Made by a program: the position numbers and the translations under genes
Virus record (IMG/VR): IMGVR_UViG_2706794926_000001
Strand: one strand, 5' to 3'
Source of the DNA: an uncultured virus (IMG/VR IMGVR_UViG_2706794926_000001)
Taxonomy: Duplodnaviria > Heunggongvirae > Uroviricota > Caudoviricetes
DNA length: 64,000 nucleotides
Part shown: positions 1 to 42,527 of the stretch, one piece after another
How the letters are laid out: each line of letters starts with the position of its first letter
Numbering within the stretch: the first letter of the stretch is position 1
The notes under the pieces: model-generated
What the model was told of the DNA's origin: nothing
Seen by the model: only the letters and a program-made list of their open reading frames with translations
Database searches by the model: none

Positions 1-554
1 TATAATCTTGGACATGAAAGTAAAGCTCCAAATTCATCAAAGTAATTCCAAATTTGATGAATAGATAATGCAAAAGTATTAACAGTTCCATCTTTTAATT
101 CTACAGTTATCTGACCACCTTCATAATTATCATCAATATCATAAGCTTCCCTTACATAAATAATTTTATTTTCAATGTCCAAAAAATAATAGTCTGGCTG
201 CATAATATTATTATCTATTATTCCATAATTATATCCGAGTCCAAAAAAATCATATAATTTATCAGCTTTACTCAATAGCTCGTGCTTAGTAGAAATAATC
301 TTGATACTACTCATATCATAATAAGAAGGCAGTATTGCTTTATATACAATGTCAACAAACTTAGTATCTGCATCTTCTATTCTTGTTTGCTTATATGCAT
401 AATTTAAAATATATTCTATGTCGTCTAGCTGAATTCCAAAAAAATTTAAAAATTGCAACCCGATAGACTCTGCGGGTTGCTTTCTCATTTGAAACCAAAA
501 TGGTAACATGGATCTTATTTTTTCAGTATATTTGGCGAACTTAAAATCTGACAT
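1..554 (-). CDS. Partial baseplate/tail structural protein (runs off the left edge)
   Basis: Not in the ORF track. ATG at 554 opens MSDFKFAKYTEKIRSMLPFWFQMRKQ... and stays open to the edge (..WNYFDEFGALLSCPRL). Lies downstream of the baseplate J-like gene. Confidence 0.55.
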   Translation of the reverse strand, partial: MSDFKFAKYTEKIRSMLPFWFQMRKQPAESIGLQFLNFFGIQLDDIEYILNYAYKQTRIEDADTKFVDIVYKAILPSYYDMSSIKIISTKHELLSKADKLYDFFGLGYNYGIIDNNIMQPDYYFLDIENKIIYVREAYDIDDNYEGGQITVELKDGTVNTFALSIHQIWNYFDEFGALLSCPRL

Positions 555-556
555 CT

Positions 557-1237
557 TTAAATCATCACCCCTCTAAAAACTAATCCTTTCAAATCTCCAT
601 TAATACTATTTAGTGTTTTATCTGATTGATCTACAACATCTGTAATTAAAAATAGAAATATATCTAAAATAGTTACAGTTTTAGTATAAGCGTCAGGATA
701 AAATACTGAGCCACAAACATTTTTAATCATATCAACAGCTATGCTTTGTCTATGACTATTCCATAACTGATATTTTTCTAAAACAATTTCTAACACCTTT
801 TTTTCTTCTGTAGAATATGATGTATCACTTATGTAAAAATAATTTAATTCATTTATTATTTTACTAAGCACCTCAACACTTCTATTTTCCAATTGGTTAT
901 AATCAATATCCTCATTGTTATCTACATATTTTACAAAGTCTTTTAAGAAAAACCTACAAATATCTAGATGTTTACTGATTATTTCTTTAAATAATATTTC
1001 TTTACCCTTATTTTTCATTTCAAAACAATTTCTAATTGTGTTTTTGTTATATTCAATCCTTGTAAATACAGGATGATAAATTAACCTTAGTTTATCATTT
1101 TCTTCATCATTGGAATTTTTTCTTCTTTTTCTCTTTATTCCAACATATGTGCCAATTATAGCTATTATTGAAGTTAAAACTGCCGTTACTGCTTTTACTA
1201 TTTCAACTTGTACTTCTGGCTCACTATTGTAGAACAT
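557..1237 (-). CDS. Single-TM membrane protein in the tail operon (possibly holin-like)
   Basis: N-terminal hydrophobic helix AVTAVLTSIIAIIGTYVGI followed by basic KRKRRK; GGAG RBS upstream. Confidence 0.45.
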   Translation of the reverse strand: MFYNSEPEVQVEIVKAVTAVLTSIIAIIGTYVGIKRKRRKNSNDEENDKLRLIYHPVFTRIEYNKNTIRNCFEMKNKGKEILFKEIISKHLDICRFFLKDFVKYVDNNEDIDYNQLENRSVEVLSKIINELNYFYISDTSYSTEEKKVLEIVLEKYQLWNSHRQSIAVDMIKNVCGSVFYPDAYTKTVTILDIFLFLITDVVDQSDKTLNSINGDLKGLVFRGVMI

Positions 1238-1250
1238 CGTATTCTCTCCT

Positions 1251-2093
1251 TTATGCTACTGTAATTGCGTCTGTATCTGTTGATACCTGAAATTTTTCAT
1301 CCCATCTTAAGCCTTGATTAATAAACAAGCATACTTCATCATTTACCTTCAATAAATTACATGCATAATTAACTATTTCGTTATTATCTTTTGTATTATT
1401 TAAAGTAGTTTGCATAATTACTTTAGTAAGTTCATTTATAATAAGAACATCTCCAATAGAAATGGAATTAATATAATCTATAATATTTGTCCTTACAGCA
1501 ACAGCTAAGGATTGCTTTTCTGTATCTGTAAGATTATTTGAATAAGTTAGAGATATTGATAGCTTAACATATTTCAATGTTGGCAGTTTAATAATCACCT
1601 TTTCTCCATAGGAGCATACATCTAATATTGCTTTTTGTACTTTGTTTAAGGTATCATCTTCAGCTTTAGCAAATGAACTTATTATTGGCATAACCGTAAA
1701 ACTTCCTGGACCATTAGAATATTTCTTCATAACAATATCATCTACATATTTAATTCCTAAAGCTGCAAGCCTTATAGATGTTTCATTAGCTTTTGAAAGA
1801 CTTAAGCATTGATTAGTTATCCTATTCCTATAATCTACATCTACTTCATTAATTGCTCTTTTGCAGGCTAATAACTTTCCAATAGCGTCTAAAAATTCTC
1901 CTGTTGCAGTAGTTACAAAGGCTTGTACATGATTTAACTCTAAAGTGTCATAAAACTCTGCTAGATTCTTTGCTATTATATCTGCAAACAACTTTGCAGT
2001 TCCTCCAGGAGTAGTTGTAAATCCGTTCTGACTAAACTGCTCATTCAGCTGCTCACATATTTCATTAAAACTCTTATTGTTTATAAGTTCCAT
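1251..2093 (-). CDS. Baseplate J-like wedge protein (short form)
   Basis: TATGEFLDAIGKLLACKR...DVDYRNRI and GPGSFTV motifs typical of baseplate J/gp47; follows a gp25-like gene. Confidence 0.8.
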   Translation of the reverse strand: MELINNKSFNEICEQLNEQFSQNGFTTTPGGTAKLFADIIAKNLAEFYDTLELNHVQAFVTTATGEFLDAIGKLLACKRAINEVDVDYRNRITNQCLSLSKANETSIRLAALGIKYVDDIVMKKYSNGPGSFTVMPIISSFAKAEDDTLNKVQKAILDVCSYGEKVIIKLPTLKYVKLSISLTYSNNLTDTEKQSLAVAVRTNIIDYINSISIGDVLIINELTKVIMQTTLNNTKDNNEIVNYACNLLKVNDEVCLFINQGLRWDEKFQVSTDTDAITVA

Positions 2094-2490
2094 AATTTAT
2101 CTTTACACCTCCAACTACATCAATTCGTACATTTATTAAAGAAGTTGAATTTCCATACTGGCTGTTTATAAAAACTAATATTCCAATGCTGTTTTTTCCC
2201 AGTTGTGATATGCAGTATATTTCCTTTTTAGATAAAAAACCATCATAGGAAACTGAATTTTCTATTGCACTTATTATCTTTTTAGCTGTAGTTTCATTAC
2301 AGGCTTCACCTATAAACTCTTCAAGATTTGCCCCAATATTAGTGTTAAACCAGTCATTAACTACAGATTTAATCCTGCATAATGCAATTTGTCTAATTAG
2401 ACCATCTTCTATGGCTCTAGCAGCATCTTTTTGGCTTATATCAAATTTAAGCTCCCCGTTATCACTTATTGCAAAATCCCTTACTATCAC
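2074..2490 (-). CDS. gp25-like baseplate wedge / sheath initiator
   Basis: 138 aa with RIKSVVNDWFNTNIGANLEEFIGE motif; sits between spike and J-like genes. Confidence 0.7.
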   Translation of the reverse strand: MIVRDFAISDNGELKFDISQKDAARAIEDGLIRQIALCRIKSVVNDWFNTNIGANLEEFIGEACNETTAKKIISAIENSVSYDGFLSKKEIYCISQLGKNSIGILVFINSQYGNSTSLINVRIDVVGGVKINYGTYKQ

Positions 2491-40984: not shown

Positions 40985-41008
40985 AAGACCTTTCTTTTAG
41001 ATAATTAT

Positions 41009-41545
41009 TTATAATTTGGCTATACGGTCTATTGCAAACTTCATTGCATCTTTTGATGAATAACCAAGCTGTCCAAGAAGTGTATCTTCTGAGTCTAAGT
41101 CATGCATAACTTGTCCTGCTGCAATAGCCCCTACTGCAGCTATGGATGTTCTCATTGCAAGCTGCTTTTTAGCATGATTTTTCTCAGCTTGAGTTGCATT
41201 AGAGCTTAGAATTGTTTTAGCTGGTTCTTTAAACCAATCTGTTCCAATTTTAAACTTTGCCTGCATATCTATATCTTTTTTTAACTGCTCAGACGCGTTA
41301 CTTACCTCTTCTTTTGTTATATCCCTTAGATTAGAATTCTTTAAAAGCTTCTTAACTGCAAGATTTTCATAGTTTGTTAGATCATTTTTACTCTTTCCCA
41401 TTTTTTTAAGTACAGAATTAAATTCATGCTTATTAACACCTGCATACTCAGAATACTTTTTATTAATAATTGAATTAACAGCCCTTCTTCTTGTACCATC
41501 TGGCATTTTTAATAAATCTACAGCATCTTTTAATACTTTATGCAC
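41009..41545 (-). CDS. Hypothetical protein with a hydrophobic Ala/Gly segment
   Basis: GTG start after GGGGGAG; SIAAVGAIAAG segment. Confidence 0.6.
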   Translation of the reverse strand: MHKVLKDAVDLLKMPDGTRRRAVNSIINKKYSEYAGVNKHEFNSVLKKMGKSKNDLTNYENLAVKKLLKNSNLRDITKEEVSNASEQLKKDIDMQAKFKIGTDWFKEPAKTILSSNATQAEKNHAKKQLAMRTSIAAVGAIAAGQVMHDLDSEDTLLGQLGYSSKDAMKFAIDRIAKL

Positions 41546-41587
41546 TATATCTCCCCCCTTTTTTAAGCCTATAAAAATTTTCTTGGC

Positions 41588-42028
41588 TTAGTAAGCTATC
41601 TTCATAGCTCTTTTTCTTGCTTCACTTCCAAATTCCTTACTCTTTTGCATATCTGAACTCATATTTTGAAGCTGTCTCTGCCTCATAGTTGCAGCAATTT
41701 CGCTAGAATTAAAAAGCTTATTACCAAGCTGTCCAGATGCTACAGCACCTGCTAAAGCTTCATGCTGAGCCTTTTCCCTTCCATACTGAAAGACTTTATC
41801 TACGCCTTTCATTACTACTTCTGCTCCCTCAACAAGAGCTACTGCTTCTCCCCCAAAAAGTCCAGTTGCAATTTCTGATATAGCTGTCTCTGCCACATTG
41901 TCCCCAAGAGTCCTTATAAAACTTTTATTATCATCTGATGCTTCTTTAGCTGAATTCATAATTAAATCAGCACCATTTTCACGAATAAACTTAGTGCCAA
42001 TATCTTTAAAAAATTTATAATTTGCCAT
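41588..42028 (-). CDS. Hypothetical Ala/Gly-rich protein
   Basis: GAGGTG RBS; GLFGGEAVALVEGA and AATMRQRQLQ segments. Confidence 0.6.
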   Translation of the reverse strand: MANYKFFKDIGTKFIRENGADLIMNSAKEASDDNKSFIRTLGDNVAETAISEIATGLFGGEAVALVEGAEVVMKGVDKVFQYGREKAQHEALAGAVASGQLGNKLFNSSEIAATMRQRQLQNMSSDMQKSKEFGSEARKRAMKIAY

Positions 42029-42035
42029 GTTATAA

Positions 42036-42527
42036 TCACCTCAATTTATGCAGTGCTAATACTATTTCCCCACTTACAGCTGAATCCATAACATTGCCCT
42101 TGAAGCTTTTTTCAGCTAATTTTTTAGCTGTTTCTTTTATAGATTCAGGTGCTTCTCCTTTGCTTTTGCCTGATTTCTTTGTAACTTTTCCTGTTTCCTT
42201 AGAATTTTTACCTGCATTTTTTACACTGTCATATATTTCTTTCATATTTGTGATTGTATCTTTTATAGTGTTATCTTCTTTTTCAGTGTCTTCTTTTGGT
42301 TCTTCAAGCATCTTAGTTAATCCTGGAGAAAGGCCAACACCATCAGTCATATCAGATAATCTTCCAGATGTAATAGGACCTAATTTAGCTGCTTCATTAA
42401 GCTTTATTGCCTCGGCAACTGTAGCGCCAACTACTATTGCACCATTTGTAATAGCAGGACTAATTCCATTTGAAGCTTTTAATGCTTTACTGCCTAATAC
42501 TTTTCCTAGTGCATTATATACATTCAA
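42036..42527 (-). CDS. First gene of the structural operon, hypothetical Ala/Gly-rich protein
   Basis: TTG start after GGGGTGG; ends SGEIVLALHKLR. Confidence 0.6.
   Translation of the reverse strand: MNVYNALGKVLGSKALKASNGISPAITNGAIVVGATVAEAIKLNEAAKLGPITSGRLSDMTDGVGLSPGLTKMLEEPKEDTEKEDNTIKDTITNMKEIYDSVKNAGKNSKETGKVTKKSGKSKGEAPESIKETAKKLAEKSFKGNVMDSAVSGEIVLALHKLR

Follow-up and report, generated by a model that had tools for sequence, protein, structure and literature searches.

A long run of contractile-tail genes on a plasmid, with no recognisable head genes alongside, raises the question of whether it encodes a maintained device, the remnant of a phage, or a complete phage whose head genes escaped recognition. 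This situation was met in a window of 64,000 nucleotides (the whole stretch of DNA analysed here; IMG/VR record IMGVR_UViG_2706794926_000001), for which an initial annotation had proposed a headless tail operon on a plasmid maintained by Rep, Par and TA functions. Positions 1-55499 of the window correspond to positions 1-55499 of contig C2 in reverse, and positions 55500-64000 to the opposite end of the same circular contig. C2 is a circular, low-GC plasmid of 136,188 bp, equal in length to the megaplasmid published for C. saccharoperbutylacetonicum N1-4(HMT) (136,188 bp; PMC5343299).

The plasmid nature of the DNA and its ParA were confirmed, whereas Rep stays a lead and TA a hint. ParA (263 aa, 54629-55420, minus strand) matched AAA_31 in Pfam (E 5e-49) and ParA_partition in NCBIfam, and forms with a 125-aa partner, assigned to the ParB slot by position, a putative pair of partition genes (54276..55420, minus strand). 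The candidate replication initiator, a 488-aa ORF on the plus strand (52032..53498), had no match in Pfam, NCBIfam or PDB searches; its language-model neighbours include Rep3_N, RPA, RepC and TrfA clusters (0.93-0.94). For TA, the plasmid yielded a 51-aa Hol-Tox-like ORF slightly under the Pfam cut-off and nothing further. The upstream neighbour of the tail operon encodes a protein with a Tad2-like (Thoeris anti-defence 2) domain (42795..43325, minus strand; Pfam PF11195, E 9.5e-7, passing the cut-off), and has a counterpart at the same place in G304, a genome from a sister species.

Anatomy of the tail operon

The run of at least 42 kb starting at 42527 was confirmed as 28 consecutive minus-strand ORFs reaching down to base 3, with an extra 78-aa ORF at 39698-39934; the sole gap above 130 bp in the ORF listing of the run spans 39572-39982. 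The operon continues beyond the window to about 94 kb overall on C2, the window holding the first 42.5 kb of this late operon, and a terminator-like hairpin (42560-42583) lies just upstream of its first ORF. Parts were identified by PHROG, Pfam and 0305phi8-36 protein comparisons; all window features below are on the minus strand. Matches upheld the fibres, sheaths, tubes, chaperones, hub-lysin and J-like protein that had been listed from the sequence, while the spike and gp25-like assignments lean on weak similarity and position and the tape measure on position.

The operon opens with four ORFs matching singleton PHROGs and no other family: 163 aa (42036..42527; G304 orthologue of 164 aa, 79% identical, dN/dS 0.29), 146 aa (41588..42028; orthologue of equal length, 84% identical, dN/dS 0.18), 178 aa (41009..41545; orthologue of equal length, dN/dS 0.25) and 333 aa (39983..40984; dN/dS 0.17). 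The last is the largest lineage-specific ORF at the position expected for head genes; its similarity to gp119 of 0305phi8-36 was not significant, and its AlphaFold2 model (pLDDT 40.5) was unusable, with helices only predicted. The extra 78-aa ORF (39698..39934) is a Cys-rich homologue of gp120 (tblastn E 1.5e-6; BLASTP 51% over 37 aa, E 7e-10), which lies upstream of the portal gene in 0305phi8-36. It is followed by a homologue of virion protein gp128 (39035..39571; tblastn E 7e-13; phrog_5955, E 7e-46), 98.9% identical in G304 with a dN/dS of 0.014. The portal-to-gp127 block of 0305phi8-36 is absent between these two genes.

Next come a 1106-aa fibre-like partial homologue of gp129 (35675..38995; tblastn E 2e-25) with three aBig_2 domains, the gp129 record being noted as 'candidate for curly fiber protein', and a fibre-like giant of 1627 aa partially homologous to gp130 (30778..35661; tblastn E 1.5e-6), which is shorter in G304 (1225 aa). 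They are succeeded by a 117-aa gp131 homologue, a curly-fibre candidate by record note (30408..30761; tblastn E 1e-5), a 356-aa full-length homologue of virion protein gp132 (29337..30407; tblastn E 9e-22; dN/dS 0.12), a 433-aa protein whose N-terminus resembles gp133 and which shows a hint of YD/RHS repeats (28022..29323), and a relatively variable 932-aa protein matching a singleton PHROG (25220..28018; 64% identical in G304, dN/dS 0.35).

Two sheath paralogues flank the gene for a 248-aa homologue of virion protein gp138 (22834..23580; PHROG and tblastn). The first, gp137-like and 524 aa long (23573..25147), matched phrog_279 'tail sheath' (E 6.5e-43) and gp137 (tblastn E 3e-31), with a dN/dS of 0.07; the second, gp139-like and 778 aa long (20497..22833), matched phrog_16991 and gp139 (36% identity, E 8e-131), and is 87% identical to its G304 counterpart. 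The tail tube (270 aa, 19618..20430) shares 54% identity with gp140 (E 1e-86) and is accompanied by a gp141-like tube paralogue of 451 aa (18126..19481; PHROG match) with a PG_binding_1 domain. The label 'major head protein' that phrog_9206 places on these two ORFs is a mislabel, stemming from gp140 and gp141, both noted 'tail tube'.

Downstream lie a 256-aa protein that resembles gp142 at its N-terminus and contains an SH3 domain (17354..18124), a 373-aa PG_binding_1 protein (16230..17351; dN/dS 0.16), and the tail assembly chaperone (14896..16185) in the two-gene form described in PMC2147016. Its gp143-like and gp144-like ORFs (15610-16185, 191 aa, and 14896-15606, 236 aa; tblastn E 5.5e-22 and 5e-9) each match the other's PHROG. 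A 147-aa ORF with a singleton PHROG and a G304 orthologue (14490..14933) precedes a 1859-aa protein (8914..14493), a candidate tape measure by its position between chaperones and hub, whose similarity to gp145 and gp146 was not significant. The 1881-aa gp147-like protein (3258..8903; tblastn E 7.6e-76) is a baseplate hub fused to cell-wall lysins (SLT, E 1e-12; NlpC/P60, E 2e-7), gp147 being given as a homologue of the T4 hub gp27 in PMC2147016.

The baseplate region continues with a 254-aa protein in the spike slot (2491..3255), weakly gp149-like (tblastn E 3.5e-7) and without a tblastn match to the gpV-like gp148, and a 138-aa gp150-like protein (2074..2490; weak, tblastn E 3e-8) in the gp25/gpW slot; position suggests the function of both. 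A 280-aa gp151-like wedge protein (1251..2093; Pfam Baseplate_J, E 1.2e-9; tblastn E 1e-42), a 226-aa protein (557..1237; phrog_18926; dN/dS 0.24) and the N-terminal portion of a 379-aa protein homologous to virion protein gp162 (3..554; phrog_21059; tblastn E 1e-66) complete the window part. Further along C2 comes a GH25 endolysin with cell-wall-binding repeats (94978-96096); the gene before it encodes a 162-aa product that has a single hydrophobic segment.

Descent and loss of the head block

When 76 proteins of 0305phi8-36 (gp101-gp180) were compared with C2 by tblastn, ordered matches extended from gp120/gp128 to gp175 (C2 15650 to 104693), while gp101-119 and gp121-127 gave none. The tail is thus collinear with that of 0305phi8-36 and lacks the head block, in line with the origin suspected beforehand. 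Homologues of gp134-136 were not found on C2 by tblastn either; gp135- and/or gp136-like genes occur in pCBJ, pG9842_140 and G384. The C. baratii element pCBJ is a complete clostridial relative, retaining portal, protease, decoration protein and major capsid protein (MCP) with 44, 29, 34 and 45% identity, respectively, to those of 0305phi8-36; the main sheath segment stands at about 40%. Comparable relatives devoid of head genes are also found on Bacillus and C. felsineum plasmids.

Searches across the replicon agreed with the reported lack of head and packaging genes. Comparison with Pfam and PHROGs placed none of its 101 ORF translations in a family of terminases, portals, proteases or true capsid proteins, and a Walker-A scan gave no terminase-like candidate. 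Over the whole 6.67-Mb genome, the TerL, portal and MCP of 0305phi8-36 retrieved nothing as queries, and phrog_3922 (MCP) and phrog_9232 (portal) had no match at E<=1 in six frames; the seven weak matches to phrog_2 (TerL) were all chromosomal. As controls, phrog_3922 detected the MCP of 0305phi8-36 (7e-72) and pCBJ (1.4e-24), and phrog_2 the TerL of both. MCP and portal searches in G304 were likewise empty. As pCBJ, with a sheath 42% identical to the second sheath of C2, keeps recognisable portal, protease, decoration protein and MCP genes, these comparisons indicate that the absence of head genes is a true loss rather than divergence.

Constraint, expression and alternative readings

G304 carries the same headless element, with the same left junction, on a 50,623-bp contig (C185). 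Gene order on this contig follows C2 8293-59144, and nucleotide identity is 69-88% (83-88% except for two short segments). In 24 of the 28 genes wholly inside this contig, orthologue lengths were within 3 aa. For 29 operon genes, dN/dS ranged from 0.014 to 0.352 (median 0.156; dS 0.20-0.95), values that were obtained by the NG86 method on one genome pair and express average constraint since the split rather than present-day function. Among 13 distal genes, including the endolysin, the gp171-175 homologues and a sigma factor, dN/dS was 0.036-0.70, and at most 0.31 in 12. The earlier argument against simple decay, made from intact reading frames, was thereby strengthened: purifying selection and intact genes in two species indicate that the element is kept by selection and is not decaying.

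A 2023 review (PMC10538166) describes mitomycin-induced headless X particles in C. saccharoperbutylacetonicum N1-4, 450 x 24 nm in size with three wavy fibres, which 'appear to be encoded' by the 136,188-bp megaplasmid and are called 'occasional'. The headless tail genes of C2 match these particles, which microscopy had already revealed in bacteria of this type; 0305phi8-36 itself bears three corkscrew fibres on a long contractile tail (PMC2147016). Positions 18000-26000 of the window were present in 10 RNA-library runs from three studies, and contigs from four of these runs matched 28000-47999 without differences, such contigs giving neither strand nor level, with DNA carry-over in the libraries possible.

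We favour, with a probability of roughly 0.7, the reading that the ~94-kb plasmid operon builds a giant headless contractile tail derived from a 0305phi8-36-like phage-plasmid and kept by selection, proposed to be tailocin-like. The main competitor, to which we give a minor share of the probability, is a defective phage-plasmid relic with its head module deleted, whose tail is still expressed and assembled without benefit to host or plasmid and will decay. The review terms suit it, comparable Bacillus particles being labelled 'probably defective' (PMC10538166), and the cluster of C. felsineum p337, apparently truncated and ending after the sheath genes, indicates that decay does happen in this lineage. 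Yet the one-strand coding run is intact over ~94 kb, and orthologues about 15% diverged in nucleotides keep equal lengths under low dN/dS (0.01-0.35, at dS of about 0.2-0.95). Since both species have the same headless junction, head loss is older than this long period of constraint.

It is very unlikely that the element is a complete phage, with head and packaging genes that have diverged beyond recognition or that a chromosomal prophage provides in trans. ORFs without family do exist, at the operon start (163, 146, 178 and 333 aa) and elsewhere on the plasmid (989 and 303 aa), and the chromosome contains prophages (PMC8285483) besides the weak TerL-family matches. Head genes are, however, among the better-conserved genes of the lineage and none was found although the positive controls succeeded; the 989-aa ORF is fibre-like by eye, ORFs of 364 and 488 aa resemble winged-helix and Rep proteins, and the microscopy summary for N1-4 reports tail-like particles and mentions no heads (PMC10538166).

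The link to eCIS drawn initially was not supported, and an Afp/PVC-like device that would carry toxins into eukaryotic or other cells is the least probable reading: a headless particle, multiple sheath and tube genes and large proteins (433 aa with YD-repeat hints, 932 aa) would suit it, but sheath and tube duplication characterises the 0305 lineage and is seen in the complete phage as well, the detectable structural relatives are 0305-like phages and plasmids, and no toxin family was matched among the operon ORFs (Pfam, PHROGs). To our knowledge, eCIS require an Afp15-type ATPase; the sole AAA+ ATPase here is of MoxR/RavA type with a VWA partner, about 20 kb away on the opposite strand.

A proposed maintained headless tail

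Under the favoured reading of a selected tail, a 0305phi8-36-like phage-plasmid ancestor would have lost large terminase, portal, protease/scaffold, decoration protein, MCP, gp126-127 and gp134-136, and retained the tail, baseplate, curly-fibre, receptor-binding-fibre and lysis genes together with the sigma factor. DNA damage would induce the operon, as the mitomycin C effect in the literature suggests. Hub-lysin, wedge, tape-measure-slot protein, tube and two sheaths, all encoded here, would assemble into the ~450-nm tail of the published particle, bearing its three thick wavy fibres, and the holin-like protein and GH25 endolysin would presumably release it by lysis. By analogy with R-type tailocins, particles may bind related clostridia through their variable fibre set and contract, the SLT/NlpC-P60 hub then puncturing the envelope.

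The candidate new lineage of the initial annotation was not supported, as the headless X particles and their attribution to the megaplasmid were already published (PMC10538166, section 8.3), and our finding is largely in print. What the present analysis adds is the gene-level anatomy of the element, the evidence for selection, and the recognition of similar relatives, also lacking head genes, on plasmids of Bacillus and C. felsineum.

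Tail operon of the circular plasmid

The host genome consists of two contigs (6,666,445 bp in total), one of which, C2, carries the whole tail operon. A letter-for-letter check showed that window 1-55499 corresponds to C2 1-55499 reversed and window 55500-64000 to the opposite end of C2, so that the window wraps around a circular replicon of 136,188 bp. The single-strand run of contractile-tail genes described in the initial annotation was confirmed: the ORF listing comprised 28 consecutive minus-strand ORFs from window 42527 down to 3, to which a 78-aa ORF is to be added, and the same-strand run extended beyond the window edge to about C2 106.9 kb, that is ~94 kb overall. 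GC content ranged from 25 to 34% across the window and GC skew was negative along the tail-gene run. A promoter scan of window 39000-44000 gave no signal (24 sites vs 28.7 expected), and a megablast comparison of the window with phage and plasmid collections returned a single 5% match, to a C. taeniosporum plasmid over the ParA region.

Analysis of gene content was based on 101 ORF translations, 46 within the window and 55 elsewhere on C2, which were compared with Pfam and PHROGs; two genes that cross the window ends are counted twice. The contractile-tail set was complete (sheath, tube, chaperone, length determinant, hub/spike, wedge and fibres), although its spike and its length determinant could be assigned by position only. 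Within the window, all on the minus strand, were found two sheath genes (23573-25147 and 20497-22833), a tube gene (19618-20430), a tube paralogue with a peptidoglycan-binding domain (18126-19481), a two-gene chaperone (15610-16185 and 14896-15606), a 1859-aa protein placed in the tape-measure slot by its position only (8914-14493), a 1881-aa hub with SLT and NlpC/P60 lysin domains (3258-8903) and a Baseplate_J protein (1251-2093). The 1859-aa protein had no significant similarity to gp145 or gp146 of phage 0305phi8-36. The remainder of the operon, off the window on C2, encodes large Ig-domain proteins, five conserved virion-protein homologues and a sigma-70-family protein, as well as about ten paralogous glycine-rich ALK_LTK_GRD (phrog_7388) fibre-like proteins and four phrog_12269 paralogues, of which one has a tail-collar domain, these two sets lying within C2 67985-93532 on the plus strand of that contig. 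An own lysis cassette was also present, made of a GH25 endolysin (C2 94978-96096, E 1.3e-31) and, just upstream, a holin-like 162-aa protein with a single TM, both conserved in the sister-species genome G304, which hosts the same headless element.

Several plasmid genes were observed around the operon. Directly upstream, a Tad2-like (Thoeris anti-defence 2) domain protein (window 42795-43325, minus strand) occupied the same place in G304, with 84% amino acid identity and a dN/dS of 0.17; an anti-defence gene is an odd possession for a headless element. Further on were a 51-aa ORF (43527-43682, plus strand) related to Pfam Hol_Tox, a putative holin-like type I toxin (E 1e-4, 22.4 bits vs a cut-off of 23.3), a terminator-like hairpin at 43768-43801, and a 765-aa Big_2 domain protein (43874-46171, minus strand) whose C-terminus looked dockerin-like by eye, in which no signal peptide was noticed, and which was conserved yet variable in G304 (69% identity, dN/dS 0.36). 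The plasmid backbone comprised adjacent DUF1659 and DUF2922 small proteins (window 56146-56630, plus strand; E 6e-18 and 2e-19), and a MoxR/RavA-like AAA+ ATPase followed by a ViaA-like VWA protein (window 62202-63998, plus strand, and onward off the window; C2 126568-129486), the two forming a RavA-ViaA-type pair. The plasmid further encodes a 1033-aa DnaE-type alpha subunit of DNA polymerase III of its own, together with a GroES co-chaperonin (C2 115815-119276, minus strand); a DNA polymerase III has been described in 0305phi8-36 as well (PMC2147016). The suggestion of a plasmid maintained by Rep, Par and toxin-antitoxin functions was thus borne out for the circular replicon and its ParA, while Rep stands as a lead and the Hol_Tox-like ORF, below its cut-off, was the only toxin-antitoxin hint found.

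Relation to phage 0305phi8-36 and the missing head block

The best phage relative of the element was Bacillus thuringiensis phage 0305phi8-36 (NC_009760.1), in agreement with the origin first proposed. A tblastn search of C2 with 76 proteins of this phage, in the range gp101-gp180, yielded strictly ordered matches to gp120, gp128-133, gp137-144, gp147, gp149-151, gp162-164 and gp171-175 between C2 15650 and 104693. This collinear virion-gene array, shared with the phage, includes the two sheaths, the tube paralogues, the two-gene chaperone, the hub-lysin, the J-like protein, curly-fibre candidates and gp171-175. In contrast, gp101-119 and gp121-127 had zero tblastn matches on C2, and the unmatched genes include those for the large terminase (TerL, gp117), portal (gp122), protease/scaffold (gp123), decoration protein (gp124) and major capsid protein (MCP, gp125). 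Phage 0305phi8-36 is a complete lytic phage of 219 kb, with TerL, portal, protease, decoration protein and MCP all present, while the element is a plasmid from which the head and packaging module (TerL, portal, protease/scaffold, MCP) is absent, as are gp126-127, gp134-136 and gp152-161.

The junction left by the missing block could be located precisely. The 78-aa Cys-rich ORF (39698-39934) is homologous to gp120 (E 7e-10, with 51% identity over 37 aa) and the gene adjoining it (39035-39571) to gp128, and between these two genes 0305phi8-36 has the block running from portal to gp127; their present adjacency indicates that fibre modules were retained and the intervening head genes lost. The four ORFs opening the run encode proteins of 163, 146, 178 and 333 aa, and the last of these showed no significant similarity to the curly-fibre candidate gp119 (E 0.099). 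A second gap concerned gp134-136, for which tblastn found no homologue on C2; gp135- and/or gp136-like genes, absent here, lie just upstream of the sheath genes in the Clostridium baratii plasmid pCBJ, in pG9842_140 and in G384, another genome of the family.

We estimate at about 0.7 the probability that the element derives from a 0305-like phage-plasmid through deletion of the head genes, and that it would produce giant headless tails upon induction, release them through its own holin and endolysin, and be maintained by selection. Its likeliest use would be that of a weapon resembling R-type tailocins, its specificity determined by the large and rapidly diverging set of fibres and its killing activity presumed.

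Selective constraint and the search for hidden head genes

Should the operon instead be a functionless relic, an explanation that we regard as rather unlikely, its genes would be expected to decay, and the constraint data argue against this. The 778-aa sheath was searched in 401 genomes of the family (381 scored, 20 not scored) and was matched in four of the 381: the host itself, G304 (87% identity), G384 (45%) and G143 (36%, C-terminal part only). None of the three others gave a match to MCP or portal, including G384, where the assembly is fragmented and the sheath-bearing contig measures only 9.1 kb. The G304 contig (50,623 bp) was collinear with C2 8293-59144 at 69-88% nucleotide identity, or 83-88% except for two short segments, and included the same genes upstream of the operon start. 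As the junction is the same in G304, its headless state predates the split of the two species.

Comparison of 29 operon genes between the host and G304 gave NG86 dN/dS values from 0.014 to 0.352 (median 0.156), with dS between 0.20 and 0.95, and orthologue lengths agreed within 3 aa for 24 of the 28 genes lying wholly inside the G304 contig; the exceptions, here vs G304, were 1106 vs 1098, 1627 vs 1225, 1859 vs 1930 and 1881 vs 1894 aa. The distal operon was also found in G304, where 13 of 14 genes gave dN/dS values of 0.036-0.70, 12 of them at or below 0.31, with 0.11 for the endolysin, 0.08-0.20 for the gp171-175 homologues and 0.04 for the sigma factor. The fibre-paralogue region (C2 ~80-93 kb) was poorly conserved between the two genomes, as expected for host-recognition genes, and the fibre array as a whole (C2 67985-93532) was the least conserved region. 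Obtained from one genome pair by the simple NG86 method, these figures argue against decay and are not proof of present-day function. The initial view that the tail genes had not simply decayed thus agrees with intact orthologues and low dN/dS in the sister species.

The operon was also present in RNA libraries. In ten RNA runs from three studies, 52-100% of sampled words of window 18000-26000 were found, and contigs from four of those runs lay on 28000-47999 without any difference; presence is all that these contigs support, as strand and level are not readable from them and DNA carry-over is not formally excluded. Contig depth was highest over the gp128-gp130 homologues (window 34000-40000) in all four runs, and contigs broke in the 39.6-40.0 kb gap in one run, which could reflect an internal promoter in front of the curly-fibre genes, a feature that contigs cannot show. 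Two further features were not used as evidence: the scant or absent RNA-contig cover, in three of the four runs, of the stretch holding the Tad2 gene (42674-43340), and a contig joint from 31244 to 41853 that rests on 21 letters only.

That the element is a complete phage, its head genes being cryptic or supplied from elsewhere, is very improbable. The first reading had recognised no terminase, portal or capsid gene, and this was borne out at two levels: no terminase, portal or prohead-protease family of Pfam or PHROGs, and no genuine capsid family, was matched by any of the 101 replicon ORF translations, and the 0305phi8-36 TerL, MCP and portal proteins had no match in the whole host genome. 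Six-frame searches of that genome read through stops gave no match at E<=1 for phrog_3922 (MCP) or phrog_9232 (portal), and seven weak matches for phrog_2 (TerL), every one chromosomal. As positive controls, phrog_3922 retrieved the MCP of 0305phi8-36 (7e-72) and pCBJ (1.4e-24), and phrog_2 the TerL of both. In pCBJ, the portal, protease, decoration protein and MCP are 44, 29, 34 and 45% identical to those of 0305phi8-36 and lie directly upstream of the tail genes; head genes thus belong to the better conserved part of the gene set in this lineage, and divergence is an unlikely excuse for their absence here. It is worth noting that the phrog_9206 label 'major head protein', attached to two tube ORFs, was rejected as a mislabel: it derives from gp140 and gp141 of 0305phi8-36, whose GenBank record notes read 'tail tube' and 'tail tube paralog', and it can lead automated annotation of head genes astray.

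Those unexplained ORFs whose size would be suitable do not resemble head genes, as far as leads from their sequences go. In a protein atlas, the 488-aa ORF had replication-initiator neighbours and the 364-aa ORF winged-helix neighbours (both leads only), and the 989-aa ORF appeared fibre-like when read by eye. PDB sequence searches with the 364-, 488-, 409- and 727-aa proteins returned weak chance or coiled-coil matches, or none, and, apart from incidental motifs, a Walker-A scan picked up the MoxR-type ATPase only. The AlphaFold2 model of the 333-aa ORF, computed from a two-sequence alignment, consisted of helices only at a pLDDT of 40.5 and was unusable for a fold search.

Place among tailocins, injection systems and plasmids

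Injection systems of the Afp/PVC/MAC type (eCIS) are recognised by structural genes akin to one another rather than to phage tails, by an AAA+ ATPase dedicated to assembly, and by toxin cargo encoded within the cluster. An eCIS-type toxin injector, which the initial annotation had linked to the multiple sheath and tube genes, is hardly credible here, since such duplication also characterises the complete phage 0305phi8-36, those structural genes for which relatives could be detected resemble genes of 0305-like phages and plasmids, Pfam and PHROGs revealed neither a toxin family nor an ATPase in the operon, and the only AAA+ protein, of MoxR/RavA type, is distant and on the other strand.

Typical tailocin gene clusters are several times smaller than ~94 kb. 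Like the R-type tailocins (clostocin O, diffocins, R-pyocins), which are headless contractile tails devoid of capsid and packaging genes, the element has full contractile-tail genes and its own lysis cassette, and lacks capsid, portal and terminase genes; it differs from them in its jumbo-phage lineage, its plasmid location and its ~94 kb of genes. With ParA and a Rep candidate (a lead) and with the head and packaging module missing, it is a derivative of a phage-plasmid, not a working one.

Headless-particle production has been reported for C. saccharoperbutylacetonicum N1-4 in section 8.3 of PMC10538166, according to which mitomycin C treatment yields X particles in addition to tailocin. These are described there as headless straight contractile rods, ~450 x 24 nm in size, that bear three wavy filaments and were seen both extended and contracted and often joined end to end; Ogata et al. 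1999 is cited for them, and their origin is ascribed to a megaplasmid of 136,188 bp that shows homology to Bacillus phage genomes. The megaplasmid of N1-4(HMT) is 136,188 bp long (PMC5343299; PMC4200160), and the contractile tail of 0305phi8-36 is unusually long and bears three large corkscrew fibres (PMC2147016). The element lies on a replicon of exactly the megaplasmid's length, by which it is linked to the X particles, and the two are very probably the same thing. As a speculation, end-to-end joining might reflect the missing gp134-136 homologues at the head-proximal tail end. Clostocin O, the species' known tailocin, is induced by DNA damage and released by lysis (PMC8285483; PMC10538166). 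It was rejected as the product of this element: it is encoded in chromosomal region P5 and was studied in a plasmid-cured strain, which PMC8285483 cites, and is therefore different from the plasmid element.

The phenomenon is thus already in print for C. saccharoperbutylacetonicum, in brief, and the candidate new lineage put forward initially was anticipated by the particles and their megaplasmid attribution in PMC10538166. Section 8.3 and the related passages of that source give no gene-level account; the deletion boundaries, selection evidence, sister-species copy and RNA cover are added by the present analysis. No other jumbo-phage-derived plasmid tailocin was described among the literature matches listed. 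The original observation was accordingly confirmed and its interpretation partly supported, an inference made from sequence only being right in substance, and not new. What is new is the gene-level anatomy, the selection evidence and a possible recurrence on other plasmids.

Regarding this recurrence, the 0305-type sheath occurred in 26 plasmid records, and 19 of the 25 listed also had a 0305-type MCP. The closest named clostridial relative, the 185-kb pCBJ of C. baratii str. Sullivan (NZ_CP006906.1; sheath 42% identical), has tube, chaperone and gp138 homologues but differs in keeping TerL, portal, protease, decoration protein and MCP next to the tail genes, and looks like a complete phage-plasmid. 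The six listed plasmids devoid of a 0305-type MCP were B. cereus G9842 pG9842_140 (NC_011774.1) and a 141.8-kb B. thuringiensis plasmid (NZ_CP132202.1), both similar in size to the element (~140 kb), together with three C. felsineum megaplasmids and the 417-kb B. mycoides KBAB4 plasmid (NZ_CP096981.1, NZ_CP096984.1, NZ_CP096987.1 and NC_010180.1). TerL-family matches were found neither in pG9842_140 nor in C. felsineum p337, and the cluster of the latter looks truncated after the sheath genes. The tail set of plasmid pG9842_140 appears full, with 0305-like genes for sheath, tube, chaperone, hub-lysin and a J-like protein; tblastn gave no MCP match in it, and its three large upstream ORFs (698, 708 and 601 aa) matched no head-related family. 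Its boundaries differ in that gp127-like and gp136-like genes, both lost here, were kept, suggesting a separate loss of the head; by its sequence, pG9842_140 may be a second, separately derived tail plasmid without head genes.

It is possible, although we hold this only tentatively, that jumbo tailocins form a recurrent, selectively kept class of plasmid weapons in Bacillota, arising through independent head losses in Clostridium and the B. cereus group and using ~450-nm tails and fast-diverging fibre paralogues to act on or kill competitors; this reading covers the present plasmid, G304, pG9842_140 and the 141.8-kb B. thuringiensis plasmid, with their differing deletion boundaries. For the solvent industry, the element represents one more lysis-capable inducible module in a production strain. 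If the particles are weapons, they would constitute by far the largest tailocin-type system known to us (~94 kb, a 450-nm tail and more than 10 fibre paralogues), and it would follow that headless devices can be maintained from the tails of jumbo phages as well, and that plasmids can carry them.
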